Part shown: piece by piece, positions 11,300 to 56,944 of the stretch
Position numbering within the stretch: the stretch's first letter is position 1
Layout of the letters: each line of letters begins with the position of its first letter
DNA from: an uncultured Fibrobacteraceae bacterium
GTDB taxonomy: Bacteria; Krumholzibacteriota; Krumholzibacteriia; LZORAL124-64-63
Length of the DNA stretch: 64,000 nt
Direction: 5' to 3'
Assembly: GCA_964524645.1 (NCBI GenBank)
Contig: CAZGEC010000002.1
Location: 5,005-69,004, forward strand
Made by a program: the position numbers and the translations under genes
The notes under the pieces: generated by a model
What the model was told of the DNA's origin: nothing
Seen by the model: only the letters and a program-made list of their open reading frames with translations
The model's database searches: none

Positions 11300-12187
11300 T
11301 CAGCCGGCGATCACGGGATTGGCCAGCCGGCCGATTCCCTCGATCTCGACCTCCACGATGTCTCCGGGCCTCAGGAACACCGGGGGATCGCGGAAGACCC
11401 CCACGCCGCCGGGCGTTCCGGTGGAGATGATGTCGCCGGCCAGCAGGGTCATGTGCCGGCTGGCATGGCTGATCAGCACGTCCACGGGAAAGATGAGCTG
11501 ATCGGTCCGACTGCTCTGCATCAGGACGCCGTTCCAGCGGGCGGTGATGGCCAGGCCCGCCGCGAGATCGGGCAGCTCCTCGGGCGTGACGATCCAGGGG
11601 CCGCAGGGTCCCCCGGTGTCGATGCTCTTGCCCCGGAACCACTGCCGGTCGCTGAACTGCGCGGCCCGATCGGAGACGTCGTTGAAGCAGGTGTAGCCCG
11701 CCACGTGCTCGCGCGCCCGCTCGACCGGGATGGCGCGGCCGGCGCGCCCGATGACCACGGCCAGCTCCGCCTCGGCGTCGACCTGGTCCAGGTCGGCGTC
11801 CAGGATGATGGGGCCGTACGGGCCCTGCAGGCAGGAGGGCGCCTTGCCGAAGAGGAGGGGCGCCTGCGGCCACGGCTTGTGCTGCTCCTGCGCGTGGTCC
11901 CGGTAGTTGAGCCCGACGGCGATGATCTTCGAAGGTTCGGGCAGCGGGGGCAGCAGCAGGGCAGAGGCGAGGGGGAACAACGGGGTTTCCGGAGTGGTTC
12001 CAGCGCCGGCGACCGCCGCGTCCGCGTGGACCTCCGCAAGCTCCCGCACGCGATCCATCCGGCCGAACAGCTCGTTCCAGCGGCGCGGCAGGTCGGGATC
12101 GGCGGCCAGCAGGTCCAGGCCGACCTGCGGGTCGAGGGCCAGCCCCGGACGGGGCCCCGTCCCGTGACGGAAGGTCAGGAGCTTCAT
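11300..12187 (-). CDS. fumarylacetoacetate hydrolase (FAH) family protein
   Basis: Contains KIIAVGLNYRDHA, AGYTCFNDVSDR, GKSIDTGGPCGPWIVT and GTPGGVG. Confidence 0.85.
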   Translation of the reverse strand: MKLLTFRHGTGPRPGLALDPQVGLDLLAADPDLPRRWNELFGRMDRVRELAEVHADAAVAGAGTTPETPLFPLASALLLPPLPEPSKIIAVGLNYRDHAQEQHKPWPQAPLLFGKAPSCLQGPYGPIILDADLDQVDAEAELAVVIGRAGRAIPVERAREHVAGYTCFNDVSDRAAQFSDRQWFRGKSIDTGGPCGPWIVTPEELPDLAAGLAITARWNGVLMQSSRTDQLIFPVDVLISHASRHMTLLAGDIISTGTPGGVGVFRDPPVFLRPGDIVEVEIEGIGRLANPVIAG

Positions 12188-12957: not shown

Positions 12958-14631
12958 GTGCTCGCCGGTGGGCTCGCCGCCGAACCGCTGACGAATCCCC
13001 CGCCGGCCCCGCTGCGAATCGGCCACGTCCGCTTTAGCATCCGGGACATCTACACGCCTGCGGAGATCGCCCAGGCGCACGGCCTGCTCCGCTTCGTGCG
13101 CCGGAGCATGAACGCGGTCCACACCAGCACCCGCCACTACGTCCTGCGCCAGGAGCTGCTCTTTCAGCCCGGCGATCCCTTCGATCCGGCGCTGCTCGCC
13201 GAGACGGAGCGCAACATGCGGGAGCTGGGCTTCCTGCACAACGTGCGCATCGTGCCCGTGGACACTTTGGCCGACGGCCGGATCGACCTGGAGGTGCGGG
13301 CCCAGGAGGTCTGGTCCCTCCAGACGCAGTTCGCACTCTCCCGGGCCTCGGAGGGGTCGCTACGCTGGAGCGTCTTTCTGTCGGACGACAATTTCCTGGG
13401 GTACGGCCTGCAGGCCGGCGTCGGGCTGGGCGAGACCGAGGACTACAGCTACCACCAGCTGAGCTTCCAGCAGCGCCGCTTTCTGGGCAGCCGCTGGCGG
13501 CTTCGCTGCGACGGCGCGGATCTGGGTGACGGCTTCTCGGAGTCGATCAGCCTGGCCCGGCCCTTCTACGCCCAGGACGATCCCTTCCAGCTGAAATGCG
13601 AGGCCTGGCGCGGGAACGTCGAGAAGCGTTTCTACCTGAGCAACGCCGGGCCGGCGGGCCGCAATCCCGCGCAGGCGGCCAGCCTGCACGCGCTGCTCGA
13701 GACCGCAGAGGACGGCGCCCAGCTGAGCACGCTGCTGAGGATCAGCCCGCCGGGCCGCGGCCGCATCTGGCGGGTGGGCGCGGGCCTGGAGGTCCACGAT
13801 CTGGAGTTTCACTTCGACGGTCCGGACCTGGAGCTGTCGGACGATCGGCACGTTCCTTACGACGTCCTGACCGCGCCCGGCAGCCCGCTGCTGCGGGAGG
13901 AAGGGCTGGCGATGTTTCCCTACCTGCAGCTCGAGACCCTGGGACGGCAGTGGACCACGACCCGGTACCTCCTGCAGTACGGATCGGTGGAGGACGTCCT
14001 CCTGGATCCGGCGCTGACCCTCAAGATCGGACCGACCTTCTTCCCGGAGGACTCGCACACCCGGCCGCGGTTGGGTCTGGAATACGAGGCGGCGGACTGG
14101 AGCCGCGCCGGTCCGGGCTTCCTCCTGCTGCAGGCCGGCGGCTCCGCGGCTCTCGACGGCCGGAGCGGCGAGGGCACCGCGGCCCTCTGGCATGTCGTCG
14201 GCTGGGTGGGGCGGTACGGCGCCGAGGCGCATCCACGGCAGACCCGCCTCTTCGCCGAGGTGGACTGGGGGCAGCGGCTGCTGGGAACGGATGCCTTCGT
14301 CCTCGGCCTGAACCGGGGCCTGCGGACCCTGGCCTTCGACGGCATGGCCGGAGACCGGCTGGTGCGCTGGAACGCGGAACAGGGCTGGGTGCTGCCGCTC
14401 GACGTGCTGGGCTTCTATCGCGCGGGTCTGGCCGCCTTCTACGCGGGAGGAATGGCCTGGTGGCACGACGAGAAGCGGGGGCCGGAGGACGTCCGCCACG
14501 AGGTGGGCATCGGCCTGCGCTTCGGCTCCACCCGCTCGGCGCGCATGGACATGGCCCGCCTGGACCTGACCTGGGCCCCGGGAGAGGATGGCGGCCCCGT
14601 GCTTACGGCCGTGACCCGCGGACTCTTCTGA
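12958..14631 (+). CDS. Omp85/BamA-TamA family outer-membrane protein; start is probably upstream and non-canonical
   Basis: POTRA-like N-region and C-terminal ...VTRGLF. The in-frame upstream sequence RICHNVIIAVAAVSIGLTGPVLAGGLAAEP is signal-peptide-like but contains no ATG/GTG/TTG. Confidence 0.5.
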   Translation: MLAGGLAAEPLTNPPPAPLRIGHVRFSIRDIYTPAEIAQAHGLLRFVRRSMNAVHTSTRHYVLRQELLFQPGDPFDPALLAETERNMRELGFLHNVRIVPVDTLADGRIDLEVRAQEVWSLQTQFALSRASEGSLRWSVFLSDDNFLGYGLQAGVGLGETEDYSYHQLSFQQRRFLGSRWRLRCDGADLGDGFSESISLARPFYAQDDPFQLKCEAWRGNVEKRFYLSNAGPAGRNPAQAASLHALLETAEDGAQLSTLLRISPPGRGRIWRVGAGLEVHDLEFHFDGPDLELSDDRHVPYDVLTAPGSPLLREEGLAMFPYLQLETLGRQWTTTRYLLQYGSVEDVLLDPALTLKIGPTFFPEDSHTRPRLGLEYEAADWSRAGPGFLLLQAGGSAALDGRSGEGTAALWHVVGWVGRYGAEAHPRQTRLFAEVDWGQRLLGTDAFVLGLNRGLRTLAFDGMAGDRLVRWNAEQGWVLPLDVLGFYRAGLAAFYAGGMAWWHDEKRGPEDVRHEVGIGLRFGSTRSARMDMARLDLTWAPGEDGGPVLTAVTRGLF

Positions 14632-19137: not shown

Positions 19138-19175
19138 AAAAGAAGAGGAGCTCGATGCCGAGCTCCTCTTCTTGC
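19138..19175. terminator. perfect 15-bp hairpin (AAGAAGAGGAGCTCG-atgc-CGAGCTCCTCTTCTT), a bidirectional terminator between convergent genes
   Basis: Read directly. On the minus strand it is followed by a TTTTCAG run. Confidence 0.6.
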
Positions 19176-19794: not shown

Positions 19795-20262
19795 ATGATC
19801 CTGAGCTCACGCTTGCGGACCTGGCGCGACCGCCTCGTCATCAACCTCTACCCGCCCTTCTTCTTCACCGGCACCCGGTGTGTGCACGTCTCGCCCGACT
19901 ACCGGCACGCCCGCATGGAGCTGCCCCTGACTCTCCTGACGCGCAACCTGAACGGCAGCCAGTTCGGCGGGGCCATCTTCGCCATGACCGATCCCGTCTT
20001 CGCCCTGCTGCTGTTCCGGCTCCTGGGACCGGGTCACGTGATCTGGGCCAAGCGCGCCACCATCGAGTTCCGGCGGCCGGGGCGCAGCCGGCTGCGGGCC
20101 GACTTCCACGTCACCGAGCAGGATCTGACCGCGATCGCCGCCGACCTGACGGCCGCAGGCCGCCACGTGCACGAGTTCCACGTCGAGGTGATGGATCGGG
20201 CCGGCGAGGTGGTGGCGACGGTGGATCAGCAGGTTTACGTGCGGAGGGAGGAGAGGTGCTGA
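19795..20262 (+). CDS. DUF4442 hotdog-fold (YiiD C-terminal-like) thioesterase-family protein
   Basis: Contains NLNGSQFGGAIFAMTDPVFALLLF. Confidence 0.65.
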   Translation: MILSSRLRTWRDRLVINLYPPFFFTGTRCVHVSPDYRHARMELPLTLLTRNLNGSQFGGAIFAMTDPVFALLLFRLLGPGHVIWAKRATIEFRRPGRSRLRADFHVTEQDLTAIAADLTAAGRHVHEFHVEVMDRAGEVVATVDQQVYVRREERC

Positions 20263-20294
20263 TCGACTTCCGCTGAAATGTCTTCCCCGAAGCC

Positions 20295-20329
20295 ATGGCC
20301 CCGGGCGCGGGCCCGGGGCCAGAGGAAGG
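20295..20329. repeat. GC hairpin element ATGGCCCCGGGC-gcgg-GCCCGGGGCCAGAGGAAGG (copy 1), 3' of the C25 peptidase gene
   Basis: 10-bp perfect stem. It is near-identical to the copy at 24373..24407. Confidence 0.5.
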
Positions 20330-20361
20330 CTCGTCCAGCCGTTCCCTGTCGCAGAGACGGC

Positions 20362-23300
20362 CTACTTCACGAGCGTCAACTTGCGGACCCGGCGCTCACC
20401 ACTGGATCTGAGCACTGAGAAGTAGACGCCGGAGGCCACCCGCCGGCCGTGGCTGTCCACTCCGAGCCAGGTGACCTCATGGTGGCCCGGGCCGAGCCGA
20501 TCGCTGACCAGGGTGGCGACCTTCCGTCCCGAGATGTCGTACACCGCCAGCTCGACCTGCCCGGCCTGGGGCAGGTCGAACCCGATGACGGTCCTGGGAT
20601 TGAAGGGATTCGGGGAGTTGCCGCCGAGGGTCAGCTCCGACGGCAGGCTGACGAGGTCCTCGGTCACGCCCGAGAGAATCCCCCGGTCCGCCGTGAGCAG
20701 GAAGTCGTCGACCCCGGCCTCGACCAGCGATCCCGACGCGTCGTCCGAGGCCACGAATCGCACCTGCACCTGATCAGTCAGGGTGATGAAGTCGGTCAGC
20801 TCGAAGGTAAACTGGGTCCACTCGGCCAGGGTCTGCTGGGTGTGTTCCAGGCTGACCCAGTTGACGCCGTCGCTGGTCACGTCGACGGCCCACCAGTCCT
20901 GGTCCGGCGCGCTCCCCCAGGAGTTGGTGTACCAGCGATAGTAACTGATGGTGGCTGAGAGTGCGTCGCTCAGGTCGAACACCGGGGTCAGCAGCGTTGT
21001 CTTGCCGTTGTCCACGTCGTTCTCTCCGGCGGCGCCGCCCAGCGAGCCGTTGCCGGTAACGAAGCACAGCGCGCCCGCGTCCGGCGAGGAGTCGTCCTCC
21101 ATCTGGATCACATGACCGTCGTACTCGGTGCCGATGGGGTCGACCCGCACCCAGATGCCGCTCGTCGCATCATCGCCCGGAGCGCCCACTGTCCAGCCGC
21201 GGTCGGTCTCGAACGCATCGAACCAGCCGCCGACGGGCAGCTCGACGTCCAGATCGGCCAGGAAGCCGTTGGCCGCCGTGATGTTCAGGTCGAGGGTGAG
21301 AGTGGAGGGCGAGGGGCAGTCGGGCAGGATCTCCACATTGAACGACCCGATCCAGCCCTCTCCGGATACCGGCACGGCGGTGCAGCTACCGCTGCTCTGG
21401 TGCACGATCACGTTGGGGTCGGCGCAGGACAGCGTTCCGGTCAACACGTCAGCGGCCGAATGCCCGGTATTGCCGAGGCGCACTTGCAGGTTGACGGTCT
21501 CGCCGCTGTCCGCGCCGCCGTTGCCGTCGCCGATCAGATCGGTGACGAGGATACCCTGCGGTTCCAGGACCGGGGCCTGGGCCACGAGGGTGAAGCTGCC
21601 CTCCCAGCCCTCCTCGCTCCCGTTGATCGACAGGTTGAACATGATGGGGTGGCCATCGGGAACGTCTCCTGCGACCCGGACGGGATAAGGTGAGAGCGAG
21701 GTGCCGGAGCCGCCGGACGGGATGTCCGGGAAGGAGCTGGGCCGGAGATCCACCTGGACGTTTGGATCGCCGGAGCCGAGAACCGCGCTGACGCCCGTGG
21801 CGGTCTCGGTGCCCACGTTCTCCAAGGTGATCTCGATCTGGGCCCTCTCACCTTCGTCCAGTACGCCGTCCATGTCCCCTTCGGCATCGTGCACGACCTG
21901 ATCTGCCACGACCAGGTAGGGTCCGGCAGGGGACACCACGGGCACCGCCCGGCGGTAGCGGTAGTGGTTCTGCTTGGTCACCGTCACCACGAATTCGTCC
22001 CCGGGCGGCAGCGGCGGGATCGTGAAGCCGATCGGAGCACCATGGCTGGTGGCCGCGCCGATCAGTTCGCCGGCGACCGACAGGCCGATCAGGGCATCCT
22101 CATCCGCGGTGACGGTGAAGGAGTTCATCCCGCTCACCAGAACCGGAGCGTGATCGACCGCCAGATCCTCGGGCAATTCCGAGAACACGGTCATGAAGGC
22201 GCCGCCGTGGTGGTGGAAAAGATGGTACGTGTCCGCCTTGTAGCTCGAGTTGTAGGGCCAGCTGGAGGCCTGCAGGTAGTACTTGCCGTAGGCGCTGCCG
22301 AAGGCCGGTTTCACGTCGACCGGACCCGGCACGCCGTAGCCGGGATCAAAATCGGGCCACATGAAGTCGTACATGCCCCAGACGTAGGCGTCGTTCACGA
22401 AGGAGAAGGAGGTCTCCGTGGCGGCGATCAGGCCGAGCGCTCCCTGGGCGTGGCGATGGAACACCTCGGCGAAGCACTCGCCGGCCATGTTGTACATCCC
22501 CGTCAGGCAGTTGACGGAGAAGACGAAGGTCAGCTCGTCGTTGTGCAGGCCCGTCAGGTTGCCGATCTGGTAGGAGGGTTCGCCCCAGCCGGACGTCGCG
22601 CCGTGATCGCGGTGCTGCAGGATGAAGGCGCCCGCGTTCACGTCGTTGTTTATGCGGCTGGCGCTGCCCCCCCAGTCGGTCAGGTACGAGGGAGTGGCGG
22701 GTATGTACCCGAGCCCGCTGGGCCCGAAGTAGTTGACCACGGTGGCGGTGTTCGACGCGGTCGACCACGACGAGCCGGGCGAGCCTTCGTAGATGGCGTA
22801 TTCGCGCACCGGCGTCTTGCCTTGTACGTTGTTGAAGTAGCCGAACAGGACTTCGCTGCAAAGGATGAACCAGCGTTCGGTCTGCCAGCCGCCGGCGATG
22901 ATCGGATGGGCGTAGAAGCCGGGATCGGTGGGCGGTTGCCGCTCGTAGTTCAGCATCTTGCCGATCATTCCCGCCAGCTCCGCCTCGTTGCGGGCGGTGA
23001 TGCGGGCGGGGACCATGTCGGGAAGGCCGTCGCCGTCCACGTCGGCGTACATGTTGTCCGATGCGATGCTGGCCAGGTGGCCCGAGTAGAAGGGCGTGAT
23101 GAGCCCGCTGGAGCCGGTCCCGTAGTCGCCCAGCAGCAGGAACGCCGCCGGCGGGATGTCCCAGGTCTGATAGGCGTTGTTCAGGTAGCCCTCGATGGCG
23201 CTGGTCGTGTTGCCGCCGATCTCGCCGACCGTGGCGATGTCGGTGAGGATTCCCTGCTCGCTACGCCAGAGCTTGAGGGTGTCGGCCCAGGCCACGAACT

Positions 23301-24087
23301 CGGGGGAATCCTGGCAGATGATCAGGTACTCGCAGCCGGTATCCCGCGCACCGGACTGGACCTGGTCGTCGATCTCTGGCAGGGAGGCGTAATTGACCAG
23401 CAGATCCTTCATGATCGGGTCCCACCAGCGGCTGCGCAGGCGGGGCTGGCCGAACTCGCCGCTGCCGCCCTGGAAGCTCACCTCGATCTGCAGGTCGCGA
23501 TAGACGAGCAGCTCCTTGCTGACCGGGTTGTACTGGAACGGCGTGATGCCCAGCAGCACGGTGGCAACACCGCGGATCTGCTGCAGGCCAGACAGGAGGG
23601 CTGGAGCCTCCGGGTAGAAGGCGTCGCGCTGGTAGATCGCATCGTTGATGGGGTAGTCCAGGGGACCGTCCTCGGTTTCCAGGGGCAGGCGGGGCGCCGG
23701 CGCCAGATCGATGTCGCTCAGAGTCTCGGTCCGCATGGCCACGATCCGCAACGAGACCTGGGCCCCGTTGGGTACCGCGATGTACCAGCCCTGGCCGGGC
23801 AGGTTGGGCGCGCCGGCATCGTTGGGCAGCAGCATGCCCGGTACGTTCACCGTCTGCCTGGTCTGGCCGTCGATGTCGATCGTGCCGAGCTGCCAACTGT
23901 CCAGGGAGAAGGCGAGCTCGACCCTGTCGGAGGCTTGCTGCAGCAGGGTCAATCCCGGATCGCCGAAGCCGTCGGTGTAACGGAAGTCGGTCGCCAGCAG
24001 CGGGGTTGCGACCAGCAGGATCAGAAAGCAGGTGATGAAGTTCGTCGCCGGCCTTCGCAAACGAGGAGAATCATGTCGTAGGGCCAT
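20362..24087 (-). CDS. peptidase C25 (gingipain-like cysteine protease) with a T9SS C-terminal sorting domain
   Basis: The gingipain catalytic region has His (RDHGATSGWG) and Cys (VNCLTGMY). The signal peptide is MALRHDSPRLRRPATNFITCFLILLVATPLLA. The C-terminus NPFNPRTVIGFDL...VYDISGRKVATL...SGVYFSV is a T9SS/FlgD-Ig-like CTD. The start is at Met 24087; the track starts at GTG 24120. Confidence 0.8.
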   Translation of the reverse strand: MALRHDSPRLRRPATNFITCFLILLVATPLLATDFRYTDGFGDPGLTLLQQASDRVELAFSLDSWQLGTIDIDGQTRQTVNVPGMLLPNDAGAPNLPGQGWYIAVPNGAQVSLRIVAMRTETLSDIDLAPAPRLPLETEDGPLDYPINDAIYQRDAFYPEAPALLSGLQQIRGVATVLLGITPFQYNPVSKELLVYRDLQIEVSFQGGSGEFGQPRLRSRWWDPIMKDLLVNYASLPEIDDQVQSGARDTGCEYLIICQDSPEFVAWADTLKLWRSEQGILTDIATVGEIGGNTTSAIEGYLNNAYQTWDIPPAAFLLLGDYGTGSSGLITPFYSGHLASIASDNMYADVDGDGLPDMVPARITARNEAELAGMIGKMLNYERQPPTDPGFYAHPIIAGGWQTERWFILCSEVLFGYFNNVQGKTPVREYAIYEGSPGSSWSTASNTATVVNYFGPSGLGYIPATPSYLTDWGGSASRINNDVNAGAFILQHRDHGATSGWGEPSYQIGNLTGLHNDELTFVFSVNCLTGMYNMAGECFAEVFHRHAQGALGLIAATETSFSFVNDAYVWGMYDFMWPDFDPGYGVPGPVDVKPAFGSAYGKYYLQASSWPYNSSYKADTYHLFHHHGGAFMTVFSELPEDLAVDHAPVLVSGMNSFTVTADEDALIGLSVAGELIGAATSHGAPIGFTIPPLPPGDEFVVTVTKQNHYRYRRAVPVVSPAGPYLVVADQVVHDAEGDMDGVLDEGERAQIEITLENVGTETATGVSAVLGSGDPNVQVDLRPSSFPDIPSGGSGTSLSPYPVRVAGDVPDGHPIMFNLSINGSEEGWEGSFTLVAQAPVLEPQGILVTDLIGDGNGGADSGETVNLQVRLGNTGHSAADVLTGTLSCADPNVIVHQSSGSCTAVPVSGEGWIGSFNVEILPDCPSPSTLTLDLNITAANGFLADLDVELPVGGWFDAFETDRGWTVGAPGDDATSGIWVRVDPIGTEYDGHVIQMEDDSSPDAGALCFVTGNGSLGGAAGENDVDNGKTTLLTPVFDLSDALSATISYYRWYTNSWGSAPDQDWWAVDVTSDGVNWVSLEHTQQTLAEWTQFTFELTDFITLTDQVQVRFVASDDASGSLVEAGVDDFLLTADRGILSGVTEDLVSLPSELTLGGNSPNPFNPRTVIGFDLPQAGQVELAVYDISGRKVATLVSDRLGPGHHEVTWLGVDSHGRRVASGVYFSVLRSSGERRVRKLTLVK

Positions 24088-24236
24088 GGAGATCTCCTGG
24101 ATCGGGGGGTGAAGGTGCACCTGGGGTCCAGAAAGCGCTCCCCGATGATGTCCGGCTGCGATGCAGAATCAATGGCCGCACCGTTTGCGGGGATAGTACC
24201 ACGAGGGCCGGGGGTCAGGCAATTCACAAGGCCCTG

Positions 24237-24258
24237 GCCCGGATCATTCATGATCCGG
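24237..24258. promoter_or_regulatory. perfect palindrome CCCGGATCAT-tc-ATGATCCGGG upstream of the C25 peptidase gene
   Basis: It lies ~150 nt upstream of the start, just above a TTGCCT-N18-TACTAT promoter-like match on the minus strand. Confidence 0.3.
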
Positions 24259-24372
24259 GATAAAGGAGAACAACACGCTTGTATCCTGTTGCCAGGAAGC
24301 AGCACCTCGGACCTCAGCGTGCCCGGCCTGGTCCTGCCGATCGTCCGTCGCCGAGGTCGCATCTCCGAAGGA

Positions 24373-24407
24373 ATGGCCCCGGGCCGGAGCCCGGGGCCAG
24401 AGGAAGG
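24373..24407. repeat. GC hairpin element ATGGCCCCGGGC-cgga-GCCCGGGGCCAGAGGAAGG (copy 2), 3' of the second T9SS substrate gene
   Basis: Its stem and 3' flank (CAGAGGAAGG) are the same as copy 1. Confidence 0.5.
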
Positions 24408-24426
24408 TCCGACTAGACGTTCCGTA

Positions 24427-26415
24427 TCACTTCAGGATGGTCACCTTCTGCACCTGCATGACCTCGGTGCCGATGCGCAGCCGGGCGAAGTAGGTGCCGC
24501 TGGAGACACGCTGTCCACTCGTGTCGCTGCCGTCCCAGGTGATGCGGTACTCCTGCGGCGCCAGCCGGCCGTTGACCAGCGTCGAGACGAGCTGGCCGCG
24601 TATGTCGTAGATGTTCAGCTGGGTCAGCTCGTTCCGGTTCACCCGGAAGCGGATCTCCGTCTTCGGGTTGAACGGGTTCGGGTAGACCTGCAAGCCGCCG
24701 CCCGCCGGCTCCACCGGCAGCTGATCCCCGACGCCGGTGAATCCGGTCAGGGTGATGTACTCGTCCGCCAGCGGGATGATGTTGCGGCTGTAGTAGAAGT
24801 CCATGAAACCCTCGACCAGCACCACGTCACCGATGGTCGGATCGTAGGACAGGGTCACGTAGGGATCGACGTGGCAGGAGTCGGCCCGCGCGCCCGTATC
24901 CGAGATCAACCAGGCCAGCAGCACGGTGCCGCCGGTGTCCATGATCCGATCCACGACCTGGGCATAGTACGTCTTGATCCAGACGCTCTCGTAGGCCTCG
25001 CCCAGGTTGCCGTTGCCGTCGTCCAGCGTGTTGTCCGACAGGTCGCGGGTATGCGCCCTGGTCGGCGGGGGCAGGTCGTTCCCGTAGGAGACGAGGTACA
25101 CGGCCGACGGCTTGTGGGGATTCAATTCCGTCAGACCGTAGTACTCGTCGACGACGCCGCCGACCCGGACCCGGTCGCCCCGCAGGACGAAGTTGGCGGC
25201 CGTGCCCTCGTAGACCAGCACGCCGCCCCACTTGTAGGTGCCGGGATCACCCACCCCTGCGCCGTGGATGACGGGATCGTAAGGCAGAGGCTCCTGCAGG
25301 ATGAACTTGCTGTCCGCCTGCACCTGCCCCGTGCCAGCCGTGACGATGGCCTCGATGTTGATGGGCTTGCCAACAAAGGGGCTGCCCTGGTAGACGCTGT
25401 CCGGATGCGCCCACTGCATGGCGTAGATGGACGTGGTGCCGATGGCGAACGACAGGAACACGCCCGGGGCCGCGCCCGGGTTCTTGGTGGTCAGACCGTC
25501 GCCATCCAGCGTCTGGAGGTAGAAGTCCACCTGGCTGTTGGTGTGGGGCGCCGGGATCGTCCCCTCGTAGGTGTCCCCCGAGGTGTTGGTCATGGGTACC
25601 GAGGACCAGGTGCCCGTGCCGCTGCCGTCGCTGTTTCGATAGTACAGCGTGGCGCTGGAGATCGTCATCGAGCCCACCGGATCGAAGATGCTCGCCGAGA
25701 CCGTGACGGGCTCGCTCGCCAGAGGCGCCCAGTTGTCGCAGTCGATGCTCTCGATCACGGGGTAGTTGGTGACGATGTCGCTCTGCTTGCGGGGCTTCAG
25801 CTCGATCAGCCCGTTGTAGACCGTCACGGGCGAGATCACGCGGATCTCGTCGCCGTTGCCCAGGCCGCTCAGGTCGATCCCGGTGTCGCTGTCGACGTAC
25901 ACGATGATCGTGTCACCGGCCCCGTTGTGGAGGTTGAACGGATTGCTGCCGGCCCCGTCCACGAAGCCGGGGACCGACGCGAAGTTGCCGACCTGCTCGT
26001 AGTTGAACGGGTGCACCAGGTCGGCGATCGGCGTGTCGGTGGGGACCGGAACGGTGCCGCCGGGGAGAATGGTGATGGTCGGGGTGGCGAGTTGGATCTC
26101 GCCCTGGAACGTGCTGACCGTTCCCGTGACCTCGACTCGGTCACCGTAGGTCAGCGGCGGCGCGGCCGCCGCGAAGAACTGGATGCCGCCGGTGGCGCCC
26201 AGGATGTAGTGCGTGCCCGTGTTGTAGGTCCCCTTGACCACGTAGATGTCTCCCGTGACCGTCACCACCTGGCCGTTACAGGGGCTGGCCGGGGCGCCGG
26301 TTACGGGATCGTACTGCTGGATCTCGTCGATGGTAGAGCACGGCTGGGCCCAGGCCATACTGGCCAGCAGGGCACCTGCGAGCAACACGAGTGCGCCAAA
26401 AAGATGCTTCCTCAT
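24427..26415 (-). CDS. secreted hypothetical protein with a T9SS C-terminal sorting domain
   Basis: The signal peptide is MRKHLFGALVLLAGALLASMAWAQP, and AAGGAGG lies upstream of the ATG. The CTD is NPFNPKTEIRF...IYDIRGQLVSTL...SGTYFARL. The start was set at 26415; the track ORF extends to 26505. Confidence 0.7.
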   Translation of the reverse strand: MRKHLFGALVLLAGALLASMAWAQPCSTIDEIQQYDPVTGAPASPCNGQVVTVTGDIYVVKGTYNTGTHYILGATGGIQFFAAAAPPLTYGDRVEVTGTVSTFQGEIQLATPTITILPGGTVPVPTDTPIADLVHPFNYEQVGNFASVPGFVDGAGSNPFNLHNGAGDTIIVYVDSDTGIDLSGLGNGDEIRVISPVTVYNGLIELKPRKQSDIVTNYPVIESIDCDNWAPLASEPVTVSASIFDPVGSMTISSATLYYRNSDGSGTGTWSSVPMTNTSGDTYEGTIPAPHTNSQVDFYLQTLDGDGLTTKNPGAAPGVFLSFAIGTTSIYAMQWAHPDSVYQGSPFVGKPINIEAIVTAGTGQVQADSKFILQEPLPYDPVIHGAGVGDPGTYKWGGVLVYEGTAANFVLRGDRVRVGGVVDEYYGLTELNPHKPSAVYLVSYGNDLPPPTRAHTRDLSDNTLDDGNGNLGEAYESVWIKTYYAQVVDRIMDTGGTVLLAWLISDTGARADSCHVDPYVTLSYDPTIGDVVLVEGFMDFYYSRNIIPLADEYITLTGFTGVGDQLPVEPAGGGLQVYPNPFNPKTEIRFRVNRNELTQLNIYDIRGQLVSTLVNGRLAPQEYRITWDGSDTSGQRVSSGTYFARLRIGTEVMQVQKVTILK

Positions 26416-28840: not shown

Positions 28841-28848
28841 GGGCCCGT

Positions 28849-28929
28849 CGTTCCGTTAGGGGTGGCTACGGCCTGAGAGAGACCCTCCGAACCTGAACCG
28901 GATCATACCGGCGTAGGGAAACGGGAACG
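28849..28929 (+). ncRNA. TPP (THI-box) riboswitch
   Basis: GGGGUGGC...CUGAGAgagACCCuccGAACCUGAaccGGAUcAUaCCGGCGUAGGGAA matches the THI-box consensus. The P1 stem is CGUUCCGU / ACGGGAACG. Confidence 0.85.
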
Positions 28930-28945
28930 CGAGACTCTCCCTCTG

Positions 28946-29014: not shown

Positions 29015-31519
29015 ATGTCCGCTCCGCAGCGTGCGTCCGGACTGCGCGCGAGTGCGGCGCTCCTGCTCGCCGCGTGTCTGCTGGCCGGCGGCCCGGCGGC
29101 CGCCGGCGAGGTCCTCGGCGGACGCGTCACGGACGCCGAGACCGGTCTGCCGCTCGTCGCGGCCAACGTGTACGTGCAGGGCCGTACGACGGGCACCGTC
29201 AGCACCGCCGGAGGCTACTTCAGCCTCCGCAACCCGCCGTCGCAGCCCTTCACCCTGGTCGTCACCTACGTGGGCTACGCGCCTGCGCTCCTGAAGATCG
29301 ATCCCGCGACCCTCGCTCCGGGGCGGGAGCTGTCAATCGCTCTGCAGCCGGTCGTCTACACCCACGAGGAGATCGTGATCTCGGCCTCGCGCTACGGCTC
29401 GGACCTGCAGCTGACCCACACCAACATTCCCGGCGACGAGATCGAGCGGGAGCGGTCCCTGGTCGACATTCCCGTCCTGCTGGAGAACGTGCCCGGCGTG
29501 TACGCCACCAGCGACGCCGGCAACGGCGTGGGTTACACCTACCTGCAGATCCGCGGCTTCGATCAGCGCCGGATCGGCGTGCTGGTCAACGGCGTGCCCC
29601 TCAACGATCCCGAGGACCAGCAGGTCTACTGGGTCGACCTGCCCGATCTGGCCTCCTCGCTGGAGGACATCCAGGTCCAGCGCGGGGTGACGAACTCCCT
29701 GGGCGGCATGCCGGCGCTGGGCGGGACGGTCAACCTGCAGACCGACGTGCTCCCCGTGGAGCCGGGTGGCCGGATCTCGCTGCAGTACGGCAGCTACAAC
29801 ACCTCGAAGCAGACCCTGCTCTACGACACGGGGCTGCTGGGCGGGAGCTTCGCCTCCGGCCTGCGCGTCACCCATCTGGAGAGCGACGGCTACCGGGACC
29901 GGGCGGGCTCGTCCCAGTGGGCGGTGTTCTGGAGCGGGCGCTACGTGACCCCGCACAGCGCCACCGATCTGTACGTCTGGACCGGCCGCGAGCTGACCCA
30001 GCAGGCCTGGTACGGCATCGACGAGGCGACCCTCGCCCGCGACCGCACGGCCAATCCCGAAACCTACCACAACGCGGTGGACGACTTCCGGCAGCCCCAG
30101 GTCCAGCTGCATCACACCCGGGATCTCTCCGACCGGATCTCGCTGCGCAACACCTTCTTCTGGGTCCACGGCGAGGGCTACTACGAGAACTTCAAGGCGG
30201 ACGCGACGGCCCGGGACTTCAGCCTCGACTATTACCTGGGTCTGGCCCCCGACGCCGAGGTGAACCTGGTGCGGCGCAAGTGGGTGCGCAAGGACCAGGC
30301 GGGCTGGTCGCCCCAGCTTAGGGTGGAGCACGCCGGCGGGCGCCTGCTCGTCGGCGGCGACGCCTACACCTTCCACAGCAACCACTGGGGCGAGGTCCTG
30401 TCGGTCGACGGCTTCACCAGCGACCAGCTGGTGGGTGGCCTGAAGTACCACGATTACACCGGCGACAAGCAGGCCTGGTCGGTCTACCTCAACGATCACT
30501 GCGACGTCGTCGGTGGGCTGACCGCGCTGCTGGATCTGCAGTATCAGTACAGGACCTACGACTTCGCCCAGGACGAGCTGGCCAACTTCCGCGGCCTGGA
30601 GCGGAACGCCTACCGCGTGGAGTACGAGTTCTTCAATCCCAAGGGGGGGCTGCACTGGCGGCTGCCCGGCACGGTGGCCGGCGGCCGGATGGCCCTCTAC
30701 GCCCATGTGGGCATCGGCCGGCGCGAGCCCGCGGACAGCGATCTCTTCGACACCTGGCAGGGTCCGGACGACCTGGGCGCGGCCCCGCTGTTCCGCAACA
30801 GCCGTGTGGTCTACCGGGACGACGGCGTGACCGTCGACCACGTGGAGTGGTCGGATCCCATCGTGCAGGAGGAGAAGGTGGTCGACTGGGAGGCGGGGGC
30901 CACCTACCGCAGCGGATGGCTGTCGGCCACCCTGAACGGCTACTGGATGGACTTCACCGACGAGATCGTCCCCTACGGCACCGTGGACGCGGACGGCTTC
31001 GGCATCCGGGGCAACGCCGGCAAGACCCTGCACCGGGGCGTCGAGCTGGGCCTGAGCTGCCAGCCGGCCGCGGGACACCTGATCAGCCTGGCCGCCTCGC
31101 GCAGCTGGGACGAGTTCGAGCACTTCATCTTCCACGACTGGGACGGGACCGCCCTGGACTACTCGGGCAATCCCCTCCCCCTGTTTCCGCGGCACATGAT
31201 CACGCTCCGCTGGCGTGCGACCTGGGGCGCCCTGCAGACGGAGCTGCGGCTGCGGCGGATCGGCAAGCAGTATCTGGACGACACCGGCAACGAGGAGCGC
31301 ACCATCGCTCCCTACGAGACCGTCGACCTGGCCGGCTGGCTCGACCTGGCGCGGCTGGGCCTCGGCGGCTGGGAGGGAGCGCGCGTGGAGCTGCGCCTGC
31401 GGAATCTGCTGGACGCGGAGTACGAAACCAGCGGATACTTCGATGGCTGGGGGGCCGGTAACTACAAGATTCCTGCTGCCAAGCGCAACTTCCTGCTGGG
31501 CGTGCACTACGATTTCTAG
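29015..31519 (+). CDS. TonB-dependent outer-membrane receptor (carboxypeptidase-regulatory-like N-domain, plug, barrel)
   Basis: Signal peptide is followed by the CarbopepD-like VLGGRVTDAETGLPLVAANVYVQG. The TonB box / plug region is EIVISASRYGSD...IQVQRG, and the C-terminus is ...FLLGVHYDF. Confidence 0.9.
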   Translation: MSAPQRASGLRASAALLLAACLLAGGPAAAGEVLGGRVTDAETGLPLVAANVYVQGRTTGTVSTAGGYFSLRNPPSQPFTLVVTYVGYAPALLKIDPATLAPGRELSIALQPVVYTHEEIVISASRYGSDLQLTHTNIPGDEIERERSLVDIPVLLENVPGVYATSDAGNGVGYTYLQIRGFDQRRIGVLVNGVPLNDPEDQQVYWVDLPDLASSLEDIQVQRGVTNSLGGMPALGGTVNLQTDVLPVEPGGRISLQYGSYNTSKQTLLYDTGLLGGSFASGLRVTHLESDGYRDRAGSSQWAVFWSGRYVTPHSATDLYVWTGRELTQQAWYGIDEATLARDRTANPETYHNAVDDFRQPQVQLHHTRDLSDRISLRNTFFWVHGEGYYENFKADATARDFSLDYYLGLAPDAEVNLVRRKWVRKDQAGWSPQLRVEHAGGRLLVGGDAYTFHSNHWGEVLSVDGFTSDQLVGGLKYHDYTGDKQAWSVYLNDHCDVVGGLTALLDLQYQYRTYDFAQDELANFRGLERNAYRVEYEFFNPKGGLHWRLPGTVAGGRMALYAHVGIGRREPADSDLFDTWQGPDDLGAAPLFRNSRVVYRDDGVTVDHVEWSDPIVQEEKVVDWEAGATYRSGWLSATLNGYWMDFTDEIVPYGTVDADGFGIRGNAGKTLHRGVELGLSCQPAAGHLISLAASRSWDEFEHFIFHDWDGTALDYSGNPLPLFPRHMITLRWRATWGALQTELRLRRIGKQYLDDTGNEERTIAPYETVDLAGWLDLARLGLGGWEGARVELRLRNLLDAEYETSGYFDGWGAGNYKIPAAKRNFLLGVHYDF

Positions 31520-55087: not shown

Positions 55088-56779
55088 CTAGCGGATCAGA
55101 CCGAGCTTGCAGGCCGGGCCGACCGCCCGCCCGTCCAGCAGGAGGCGGCCGCAGTAGACGCCGCTCGGCAGCTCGCGGCCCGCGGCGTCCCGGCCCTCCC
55201 AGGTGATTCCCTGCTCGCCCGCCGGCCGCTCTCCGCCTTCCAGGCGTGCGACGAGCCGCCCGCGCGCGTCGTACAGCCGCAGGCTCACCTCTCCCGGACG
55301 GGCCAGGACGAAGCGGATCTCCGTGCGCGGGTTGAAGGGATTGGGCCGCCCGCCCAGCAGGGTCGCGGTCCAGGCGCTGCGATCGGTCTGTGCGGGAGTC
55401 CGGGCGTTCGCCACGTTCGAGAGGGCCGAGACGTGGCCCGGCTCGCCGTAGGCGCCCCACTCGTCGAGCACCCGGAGGGCGAAGTAGTAGCGCATACCAG
55501 GCTCCAAGCCGCTCGCCCGTGCCTTCTGCCAGCTCCCGGGTGCGCCAGGCGGCGGTACATCGCTCACCGGCGTGGCCGTGGCGAAGCTGGACGCATCGAG
55601 TGGCTCGGTGGCCCGGCGGAGATCGTAGGCCGCTGCCCTGCCCTCGGTGCCGTCGTCGCCCGTGGCCGTCCAGCGGAGCAGCAGCGTGGTGCTGTCGGCA
55701 TCGTAGACCGCGAGATCGAGCACGGGTGCGGGTGGAATGCTGTCCGGTTCCGCGAGGGCCCGGAAGGCGTCGAGCCGGCCGCCCGTGATCACCAGGCCCG
55801 CCAGCTCGGGCGTCGCAACGGTGCCGGCAAGGATGCGGGCCTTGACCGCTCCGGCGTCGAGCGCCGGGAAGCGCCCCCGCACCAGAGCGGCCACGCCGGC
55901 CACCATGGGCGTGGCAAACGAGGTGCCCAAGACGTAGTCGAAGCCGCCGCTGCCCGCCGGCACCAGGATGCGCACCCCCGGTGCGGCCAGATGCACGCTC
56001 TCGTCGCCGTAGTTGAAGATCTGCTGGCCGTCGGGTTTCAGACCGGTCACGCAGATGATGTTGGGCAGGTCGTAGCAGCACGGGTACTCCGGCGCGGCGT
56101 CCACGTCCCGGCCGTCGTTTCCCGCGGAGCAAACGATCAAGAGATCGTGCTCCAGGGCGTAGAGGCAGGCCGCGTAAAGGTCGTCGAGATAGTGCTGGGG
56201 GGCGGAGTACGGGATGTCCCAGCTGACGTTGATGACCTCGGCGCCCGCGTCGGCCGCCGCGTAGATGGTCAGGATCCGCGAATCGATGAGTGACGAGCTG
56301 CGCACCGGCAGCAGCGAGACCTCCCAGTTGATGCCGGTCATGCCAAGCCCGTTGTGGCCGACGGCGCCGATGATGCCCGCGATGGCCGTGCCGTGATGGA
56401 CGCTCTTGGGGGTGGGCTCGTTCGCCAGCTCGTAGCCCTTCCCGCCGCGGAGGGGAGGAATGACGATCGCCGGCAGCAGGTTGGCGGCCAGGTCCGGGTG
56501 CCCGGCGAGATCGAAGTCGCTGTCGCTGATCGCCACGATGACGGAGCGCGAGCCCGTCGAGACGTTCCAGGCGGCCGGGGCCGCGATGTCGATGCCGGCG
56601 ATCGCCGGCAAAGGGCCGGCGTTGTCCCCGGTGTTCTGCAGCGACCACTGGTCGGGAAAGCGGGGATCGTCCGGCAGGATGGCCGGAGCCAGCGCGGCGA
56701 TGGCGAGCAGGACGGCCGCAGGGATCGCCAGGAGCCGCCGCCGGGCGGTCGAAACGGATACGCGTCGAGAAGCCATCAC
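55088..56779 (-). CDS. S8 (subtilisin-like) serine peptidase with a T9SS C-terminal sorting domain
   Basis: The His motif is HGTAIAGIIGA and the Ser motif is GTSFATPMVAGVAAL. A signal peptide is present. The CTD is NPFNPRTEIRF...LYDARGRLVARL...SGVYCGRL. Confidence 0.85.
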   Translation of the reverse strand: MMASRRVSVSTARRRLLAIPAAVLLAIAALAPAILPDDPRFPDQWSLQNTGDNAGPLPAIAGIDIAAPAAWNVSTGSRSVIVAISDSDFDLAGHPDLAANLLPAIVIPPLRGGKGYELANEPTPKSVHHGTAIAGIIGAVGHNGLGMTGINWEVSLLPVRSSSLIDSRILTIYAAADAGAEVINVSWDIPYSAPQHYLDDLYAACLYALEHDLLIVCSAGNDGRDVDAAPEYPCCYDLPNIICVTGLKPDGQQIFNYGDESVHLAAPGVRILVPAGSGGFDYVLGTSFATPMVAGVAALVRGRFPALDAGAVKARILAGTVATPELAGLVITGGRLDAFRALAEPDSIPPAPVLDLAVYDADSTTLLLRWTATGDDGTEGRAAAYDLRRATEPLDASSFATATPVSDVPPPGAPGSWQKARASGLEPGMRYYFALRVLDEWGAYGEPGHVSALSNVANARTPAQTDRSAWTATLLGGRPNPFNPRTEIRFVLARPGEVSLRLYDARGRLVARLEGGERPAGEQGITWEGRDAAGRELPSGVYCGRLLLDGRAVGPACKLGLIR

Positions 56780-56944
56780 TGCCCTCCTTGTGGTTGTGCC
56801 CCACGATTCTAACGGCCGCGTGGTGCCGATACAAGCTGCTCGCGGTGCCGCTCACGGACCACCGTGGCGCCGGCGGTTCAGGTGTGCGATCCTTGGTGGG
56901 GGAATCCGGCGGTGCGCAAGGCGCCGGATCGCCGGGAGGAGCCC

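Follow-up and report, generated by a model that had tools for sequence, protein, structure and literature searches.

Hairpins behind two type IX secretion cargo genes as probable right-end relics of an IS110-family insertion sequence

The stretch of DNA analysed here (the window; 64,000 nt of contig CAZGEC010000002.1, from an uncultured bacterium) carries two GC-rich hairpins of nearly identical sequence. Site 1 lies behind a C25 peptidase gene and site 2 behind an OB-fold gene, both on the minus strand and both encoding cargo of the type IX secretion system (T9SS). We consider it very probable that each hairpin element represents the last ~90 nt at the right end of an insertion sequence (IS) of the IS110 family, IS1111 group, that is now dead. 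The association with T9SS genes is caused by the target specificity of the insertion sequence and not by shared regulation. This would be a known kind of element with an unusual target, the coding end of a sorting signal, where it appears to supply its own stop codon and its own terminator. For the window, a speculative regulatory element of secretion cargo is replaced by a concrete origin that can be checked.

Right-end homology of the window hairpins

A pattern scan of the window found GGCCCCGGGC-N4-GCCCGGGGCC exactly at 20297-20320 and 24375-24398, and no third copy even when 3 mismatches were allowed. The chance expectation for the palindrome is 0.21, with two or more matches in 4 of 100 shuffles; the G+C content of the window is ~70%. 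A flanking T-A pair extends the stem to 11 bp at each site, at about -30 kcal/mol. In the sense of the genes, the site 2 hairpin (24374..24399, minus strand) reads UGGCCCCGGGC-UCCG-GCCCGGGGCCA (-29.5 kcal/mol) with the tail UUCCUUCGGA, and is the presumed terminator of the OB-fold T9SS gene. The site 1 hairpin (20296..20321, minus strand), which lies between the convergent C25 and DUF4442 genes, has the same stem arms and an unlike loop, UGGCCCCGGGC-CCGC-GCCCGGGGCCA (-29.9 kcal/mol). The direct repeat is wider than the hairpins and comprises 94 nt (20257-20350 versus 24335-24428) at 74% identity. An earlier note on this DNA had described two matching GC hairpins with identical flanks, 20-35 bp past the stops of two minus-strand genes with T9SS C-terminal domains. 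Its coordinates and gene identities were confirmed, and the elements stand 32 nt from the stop of the C25 gene and 19 nt from that of the OB-fold gene. No Rfam family reached the gathering threshold for the hairpin element (best E=0.2-3, unrelated).

Outside the window, the exact pattern CTCTGGCCCCGGGC-N3-8-GCCCGGGGCCA had zero matches in metagenome contigs and one in genome contigs, an unrelated Planctomycetota sequence with an 8-nt loop and other flanks. In viral contigs GGAACGGCTARTCNAG had at least 120 matches, about the chance level for 14 specified bases by a rough estimate, and none of them was followed by CCTTCC or the hairpin. Metagenome contigs were also scanned with a relaxed pattern that holds no gene information, CCTTCC-N3-4-GGCCCCGGG-N4-8-CCCGGGGCC, and of its 13 matches 9 were ordinary or chance hairpins. 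The remaining 4 (L010, L011, L012 and L015) share a further motif absent from those nine, GGAACGGCTAGTC, which the pattern had not requested and which stands 3 nt after the stop of genes ending in ...L(L/I/V)K.

The L010 contig carries an IS110-family transposase gene, with GGAACGGCTGG just upstream of the transposase start and CTAGCCGTTCC at the far end, adjoining the hairpin. Homologues of this transposase with 82-84% identity were retrieved with their contigs for boundary comparison, and full-length copies are available from the metagenome contigs L010, L147 and L152-L155. These copies are 1433-1465 bp long. Their transposase matches PF01548 and PF02371 (the DEDD/RuvC-like and IS110 C-terminal domains), as well as NF033542 'IS110 family RNA-guided transposase' (219-232 bits; cutoff 140). 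The non-coding ends measure 237-247 nt on the right, downstream of the transposase gene, and 87-106 nt on the left. Subterminal inverted repeats of 13 bp, ATGGAACGGCT(G/A)G, have outer extensions of 7 nt on the left (AGACAAA|ATGGAACGGCTGG) and 3 nt on the right (CTAGCCGTTCCAT|ATC). Copies in unrelated flanks have in common the sequence from AGACAA(A/T)ATGGAACGG... through ...CTAGCCGTTCCATATC, with a shared right part of ...hairpin...TTGACTAGCCGTTCCATATC, and the flanks of six copies diverge exactly outside the element ends. Read in the sense of the host gene, the right end consists of GA, the 13-bp inverted repeat ATGGAACGGCTAG, the GC hairpin, a U-tract and the 3' strand of the guide-RNA stem. 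Such subterminal repeats (11-13 bp in the group, extended by ~7 nt at the left and 3 nt at the right end; PMC11187229) and a right non-coding end longer than the left are published hallmarks of the IS1111 group, and features of that family are also given in PMC11208160. Judged by their sequence, the full-length relatives are members of the IS110 family, IS1111 group. Rfam held no relevant match for the insertion sequence.

An nhmmer profile of the right end, built solely from full copies of other samples (L010, L147, L152 and L153), matches the window at site 2 (24429-24339, profile positions 1-90, E=3e-12) and at site 1 (20349-20259, profile positions 3-92, E=5.7e-10), with no further window match at E<=10. 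Since this profile is independent of the window, its matching these two sites alone is the strongest case against chance. It also matches site 2 of the related contig L145 (E=2.5e-28), L002-L004, L011, L012 and L015; in a blastn comparison, site 1 is 72% identical to the L010 right end over 88 nt. The site 2 relic (24339..24428, minus strand, by nhmmer) runs from the GA of the OB-fold TGA stop into the former guide-RNA stem region and keeps a remnant of the right subterminal inverted repeat at 24411..24423 (minus strand; GGAACGTCTAGTC, consensus GGAACGGCTAGTC). The site 1 relic (20259..20349, minus strand, by nhmmer) is from the same right end, with the repeat remnant at 20333..20345 (minus strand; GGAACGGCTGGAC), but starts at a non-canonical junction 16 nt after the intact TAG of the C25 gene. 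The flanks shared by the two hairpins also belong to the insertion sequence: the plus-strand flank AGAGGAAGG is its stretch between hairpin and inverted repeat, and the other flank, ...TTCGGGGAAG..CGACGGTCGATC, belongs to the closing stem of its non-coding RNA, of which it forms the 3' strand. Neither a transposase (tblastn with the L010 transposase, E<=0.01) nor a left end (nhmmer left-end profile) was found in the window, and both copies are therefore dead, relics derived from the family rather than members of it.

One may ask whether the unit of motif and hairpin is instead a native REP-like (repetitive extragenic palindromic) or terminator element of T9SS genes, serving the insertion sequence as a target without being part of it, as REP does for ISPpu9/ISPpu10 and attC for other IS1111 elements. 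Members of the IS110 family do insert into repeated palindromic elements (PMC11208160), the unit adjoins every full copy, and IS-free units occur in the window, L011 and L015. However, the published IS1111 end, 3 nt past the subterminal repeat (PMC11187229), is the exact point at which the five right flanks diverge, and a matching left repeat stands 7 nt from the other end, where the left flanks show no continuation of the unit. Rejoining the flanks gives a plain '...AAG TAG' end that lacks the unit. Furthermore, the relics stop at unequal inner points (after 55-60 nt, ~90 nt, or 124 nt with a transposase fragment), as in decay and unlike a fixed insertion point. A native target unit is thus quite unlikely, and we prefer to read the unit as the right end of the insertion sequence itself.

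The target site and its tie to T9SS genes

In each of the 5 distinct right junctions of the full copies, a stop codon is split at NNNNT|AG and the right end faces the gene. Rejoined flanks restore the gene ends CTG GTA CGG TAG (L010), GTG AAG TAG (L152) and CTG AAG TAG (L155), and the others read CCC GGC TAG (L147) and CTG AAA TAG (L153/L154). The element sits inside the TAG after its T and its terminal GA rebuilds a TGA, which results in a constant distance from stop to motif. Three of the five right flanks are ends of genes with a T9SS C-terminal domain, encoding a trypsin-like peptidase (..GRMTLVR, L010), a C10 peptidase (..RRMMLVK, L152) and an S8 peptidase (..VRMTLLK, L155), and a fourth is a pseudo-end resembling such a domain (..VTKLK).

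The relics tell the same story. Those of L011, L012a, L012b and L015 have this junction too, each behind a T9SS C-terminal-domain gene, and by the C-terminal-domain profile the same class of gene precedes a relic in every case (7 of 7 distinct genes). The motif-bearing genes are of various types, namely OB-fold, C25, M43/PKD peptidase, trypsin-like peptidase and two convergent genes of L012. The sole relic that does not lie at the T|AG/stop junction of a T9SS gene end is that of window site 1, 16 nt past the intact TAG. Relics and full copies together amount to ~10 independent events, of which 7 or 8 are at T9SS cargo genes. The tie to T9SS cargo genes proposed in the earlier note therefore holds, in the relics as in three of the five full-copy flanks. 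A pattern search of metagenome contigs found the element elsewhere, after T9SS genes. The earlier note was also right that the third T9SS substrate of the window, an S8 peptidase (55088-56851, minus strand), lacks the element; the stop of this gene is 5 nt from that of a convergent UvrD-like helicase gene, which leaves no space for one. A literature search gave no relevant report of a motif in the 3' untranslated region (3' UTR) of T9SS genes or of IS110 in connection with T9SS.

An arrangement of its own was seen at L012:391-463, where two convergent T9SS genes share one hairpin, each with its own right-end-type inverted repeat. This 73-nt unit resembles a miniature inverted-repeat transposable element (MITE); two opposed insertions, with recombination between them at the palindrome, are its more likely origin.

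The motif is conserved far above the adjacent coding DNA, and this, together with its fixed 3-nt distance from the stop, is what one would expect of a regulatory RNA in the 3' UTR of T9SS cargo mRNAs, selected for co-regulation either as a binding site for a protein or small RNA (sRNA) or as the source of a 3'-UTR-derived sRNA. RNAfold also predicts a small hairpin, GGAA.GGC/GCC.UUCC, in several copies. That hairpin, however, lacks compensatory changes, and its pairing is interrupted in L012b, L015 and the window copy win2. The motif is the inverted repeat of a transposon and occurs also at the left end, away from T9SS genes, and the fixed distance is accounted for by the geometry of the insertion sequence. 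The motif is moreover missing from distant OB-fold orthologues and from the C25 orthologues of L145 and L146, and has no Rfam match. A shared regulatory RNA is accordingly an extremely improbable explanation, whereas insertion specificity accounts for the same features.

How the insertion sequence may recognise its target is suggested by a variable 5-nt segment of its non-coding RNA (TGCGG/TAAAG/TGAAT/TGAAG), placed in a predicted internal loop. Compared with the last 5 nt before the junction, this segment matches at 5/5, 4/5, 4/5, 4/5 and 0/5 positions over the five junctions, and the match covers the change of AAG to CGG in L010. In a consensus fold of four sequences, two compensatory pairs are seen in the closing stem, GGGGAAGNNNC/GNNNCTTCCCC. 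For a second guide against the left flank, a 6-mer match was found only in L010, at chance level, and the candidate seek/bridge RNA had no Rfam match. The variable 5-mer is compatible with seek/bridge-RNA guidance across these few sequences, and targeting of the element may accordingly be RNA-guided. A near-invariant non-coding core of ~80 nt was also observed at L152:6117-6290 and its equivalents, with internal copies of both element ends (CTAGACA, GATATCA).

History of the two sites and the terminator reading

At site 2 the junction is canonical (...CTG AAG T|GA TAC GGAACG) and common to L145, L002 and L003, which indicates one old insertion. OB-fold orthologues of 86-91% protein identity (L002, L003/L004 and L145) keep the hairpin at the same place, and the changes at the base and top of its stem retain pairing (U-A, U.G plus G-C, A-U). 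Next to the hairpin, L145 has kept 124 nt of the right end and a transposase fragment (residues 303-348, 59% identity), and ~90 nt of right end are left in the window, L002 and L003. Orthologues of 51-61% identity (L005, L142, L143 and L144) carry different GC hairpins at the same place, three of the four with T-tracts. A terminator-like hairpin is therefore general at this position, but the sequence found here is a young one.

Site 1 has a different past. Here the coding flanks of the window and L145 are ~94% identical, but the spacer between the two stops is not homologous, and L145 has another terminator, AGACCCGGGAGGC-GGCG-GCCTCCCGGGTCT with TTTG behind it, similar to that of the OB-fold gene in L005. 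The heptamer CGATCAG (20259..20265, minus strand) coincides with the inner end of relic 1 and occurs both in the right end of the insertion sequence (GGTCGATCAGACTG) and where the DUF4442 gene natively ends (in L145, GCCGATCAGCGCC). This microhomology is a probable junction of a deletion, which is itself inferred.

The terminators of L145 (~13745-13800) and L005 (~11975-12030) form a second family of similar build, CTCAC(AC)GGAGAGCGTGA..ACCCGGGAGGC-loop-GCCTCCCGGGT plus a T-tract, and stand after different T9SS genes, C25 in L145 and OB-fold in L005. This CTCAC(AC) terminator may be ancestral and retained when the C25 gene was inserted, or may be another mobile-element end.

Could the two window sites simply reflect a cassette of C-terminal domain and terminator that was recently duplicated in tandem, along the lines of the earlier note, or was passed between the neighbouring genes by gene conversion? 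The genes are adjacent, homology runs from the coding part of the C-terminal domain through the stop into the 3' UTR, and the core CCTTCCTCTGGCCCCGGGC...GCCCGGGGCCAT is identical at both sites and 2-3 positions off that of the relatives, so that local gene conversion of this core is possible. However, the C-terminal-domain coding DNA is only ~60% identical. Outside the core the two relics are 70% identical, and site 1 resembles its neighbour no more than it does the L147 IS end (70%) or L145 site 2 (71%), both in other organisms. The gene junctions differ as well (16 nt versus 0), and L145, the relative with ~94% identical flanks, lacks the element at site 1 and has a different terminator there. 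Duplication of a cassette is very improbable on these grounds, and neither a co-regulated nor a recently duplicated cassette is upheld; two separate right-end relics fit better.

The hairpins nevertheless have the look of terminators. In L145, L015, L010 and L147 the first 8 nt past the stem include 5-7 U. G.U pairs occur in four copies; read from the opposite strand they would turn into A.C mismatches, and the tails of that strand are purine-rich with 0-1 U. Among the site-2 relics of four orthologues, variable columns number 2 of 22 in the stem versus 25 of 53 elsewhere (Fisher p=0.0015), and the hairpin is outside the conserved non-coding RNA core. That the stem is conserved above the rest of the relic indicates constraint after the death of the element and suggests a present terminator role. 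A simple terminator scan called neither window site. We think that the window hairpins probably terminate transcription today. Of the conserved terminator/REP-like family envisaged earlier, then, the repeated family and its terminator-like character stand (U-tracts, strand-specific G.U pairs, stem conservation), but a generic REP does not.

Several other readings of the element were considered and set aside. The small hairpin upstream of the main stem, also when written GGAA.GGCU/AGCC.UUCC, failed as described above. Pairing of CCUUCC with the downstream GGGGAAG was dropped in favour of assigning GGGGAAG to the guide-RNA closing stem, as its 3' strand. A promoter of the extracytoplasmic function (ECF) sigma type, GGAAC-N15-16-TCTGG, has a varying -10-like part, and site 1 and L012 face convergent genes; an antisense TTGACT, taken as a -35 box, has no -10 at a suitable distance. 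An in-frame read-through peptide is contradicted by site 1, which is out of frame. As for an attC/Xer-type site, core motifs (GTTRRRY) are missing, and no integrase was found among 20 window open reading frames scanned against Pfam, the neighbours of both sites included.

We somewhat favour a model in which an IS1111-group element homes by its seek/bridge RNA to the junction of Lys codon and stop in T9SS sorting domains, a safe harbour present in many copies, and brings its own stop and an inward-facing terminator, leaving the cargo protein and its expression intact; after decay of the element, the host would keep the terminator. In the main reading, which we hold to be very probable, a live element inserts one way round inside T|AG, usually just past the last Lys codon of a T9SS C-terminal-domain gene. 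The GA of its right end rebuilds a TGA stop, so that the host protein is unchanged. The hairpin of 10-12 bp and the U-tract, in the sense of the host gene, would act as a terminator facing incoming host transcription, ending the host transcript before it runs antisense into the transposase gene and giving the interrupted gene a new transcript end. Last in order, the right end brings the 3' strand of the guide-RNA closing stem. At site 2, a copy landed after the OB-fold gene and would then have lost its body stepwise. At site 1, a second copy would have entered the 3' UTR of the C25 gene, and a deletion at the CGATCAG microhomology would then have removed both the native terminator and the body of the element.

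A number of observations weigh against this account. The L147 copy is at the stop of a LamG-domain gene whose ending does not resemble the C-terminal domain, and its candidate guide mismatches the flank. Covariation of guide and target comes down to essentially one independent change, that of L010. The L152, L153 and L154 copies swap flanks and L010 looks chimeric, so some of the flank pairings may be assembly artefacts. Site 1 is off the canonical T|AG, with its relic 16 nt past the intact C25 TAG, and its origin, by off-target insertion or by ectopic recombination, is a reconstruction. Finally, the U-tracts of the window copies are weak, at 3-4 U in 8 nt. Joins of AT-rich to GC-rich sequence were also noted in L010:1-780 and L003:6134-6316, and are probable assembly chimeras around repeats.

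If the model is true, the terminators of secreted-protease genes in this uncultured lineage have been repeatedly replaced by transposon ends. It would provide a natural example of an RNA-guided IS110/IS1111 recombinase with a target at the very end of coding sequences, where it would do no harm, since a stop codon and a terminator come with the element. The variable 5-nt segment and the defined natural targets offer a system for tests of target programming in a less-studied IS1111 branch. More generally, relics of this kind can be mistaken for conserved cis-regulatory motifs tied to a class of genes.

Gene surroundings and comparison with known systems

The C25 peptidase gene (20362..24087, minus strand) encodes Peptidase_C25, Propeptide_C25 and a FlgD_ig T9SS C-terminal domain, and ends GTG AAG TAG. 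The OB-fold T9SS cargo gene (24427..26415, minus strand; Por_Secre_tail/FlgD_ig) ends CTG AAG T|GA, with the GA supplied by the insertion sequence; its protein has no exact match on record. Convergent to them is a DUF4442/4HBT thioesterase gene (19795..20262, plus strand), whose stop at 20260-20262 lies inside the CGATCAG junction. Names on homologues of window proteins include Candidatus Krumholzibacteriia and Candidatus Eisenbacteria.

The window, L145, L002 and L003 alone have the C25 gene between the OB-fold and DUF4442 genes. Those two genes are direct convergent neighbours in L142, and in L146 a C25 orthologue, 62% identical, is found in another gene context. This difference in placement indicates an insertion of the C25 gene at this place within this clade, beside the relic of the insertion sequence. 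About 100 nt upstream of the C25 start there is a candidate promoter, TTGCCT-N18-TACTAT (24193-24222, minus strand), conserved in four relatives and compatible with separate transcription of the C25 and OB-fold genes. The spacer between these two genes also holds a 22-nt palindrome, CCCGGATCA-TGAA-TGATCCGGG (24238-24259), which is present in the window and not in L145, L002 or L003.

Elsewhere in the window, a perfect 15-bp inverted repeat, AAGAAGAGGAGCTCG-N4-CGAGCTCCTCTTCTT, lies at 19140-19173 in a stretch with no clear gene call. The only Rfam match of the whole window at gathering level is a thiamine pyrophosphate (TPP) riboswitch at 28848-28936 (plus strand; RF00059, 71.3 bits, E=4.7e-12), just preceding a TonB-dependent receptor gene (29015-31519). 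In L145, genes for thiamine pyrophosphokinase and an SSF transporter adjoin the homologous TonB-dependent receptor gene.

Among known systems, the full-length copies are most readily compared with the IS1111 group (e.g. IS4321/IS5075, attC-targeting members, ISEc11 and ISKpn4), with which they share the DEDD transposase, the long downstream non-coding region, the 13-bp subterminal repeats, insertion specific in site and orientation with no obvious target duplication, and a candidate guide in an internal loop. They differ in their target, which here is the junction of last codon and stop codon of mostly T9SS cargo genes and not a REP, an attC or a transposon end, and in a right end that rebuilds the stop codon and carries an inward-facing hairpin with U-tract. 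The window copies differ further in having neither transposase, left end nor guide RNA.

Right-part pieces of an IS110-family element standing alone at target sites also have a parallel in Pseudomonas putida KT2440. Solitary modules of ISPpu9 (ssr9 without transposase) are there found as right non-coding pieces alone at target sites (doi 10.1101/2025.01.17.633520); they reportedly encode an sRNA and move as separate circles. The window relics differ in that their inner ends are variable and truncated, which fits decay better than modular transposition.

Repetitive extragenic palindromes, including bacterial interspersed mosaic elements (REP/BIME), and MITEs are likewise short repeated extragenic sequences that contain a palindrome and lie at gene ends. 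In contrast to REP/BIME, the hairpin element has 2 copies in 64 kb, both after T9SS genes, and its parent is of IS110 type, although no search aimed at RAYT was made. In contrast to MITEs, the window copies keep the right repeat only, and the L012 unit has two right-type ends instead of a left and a right one. With rho-independent terminators, finally, the element shares a GC-rich stem of 10-12 bp, a loop of 3-6 nt, a position directly after the gene on the sense strand and, in most family members, the U-tract. It differs from them in the tails of the window copies, with 3-4 U in 8 nt, and in that the hairpin appears to have been delivered ready-made by a mobile element.

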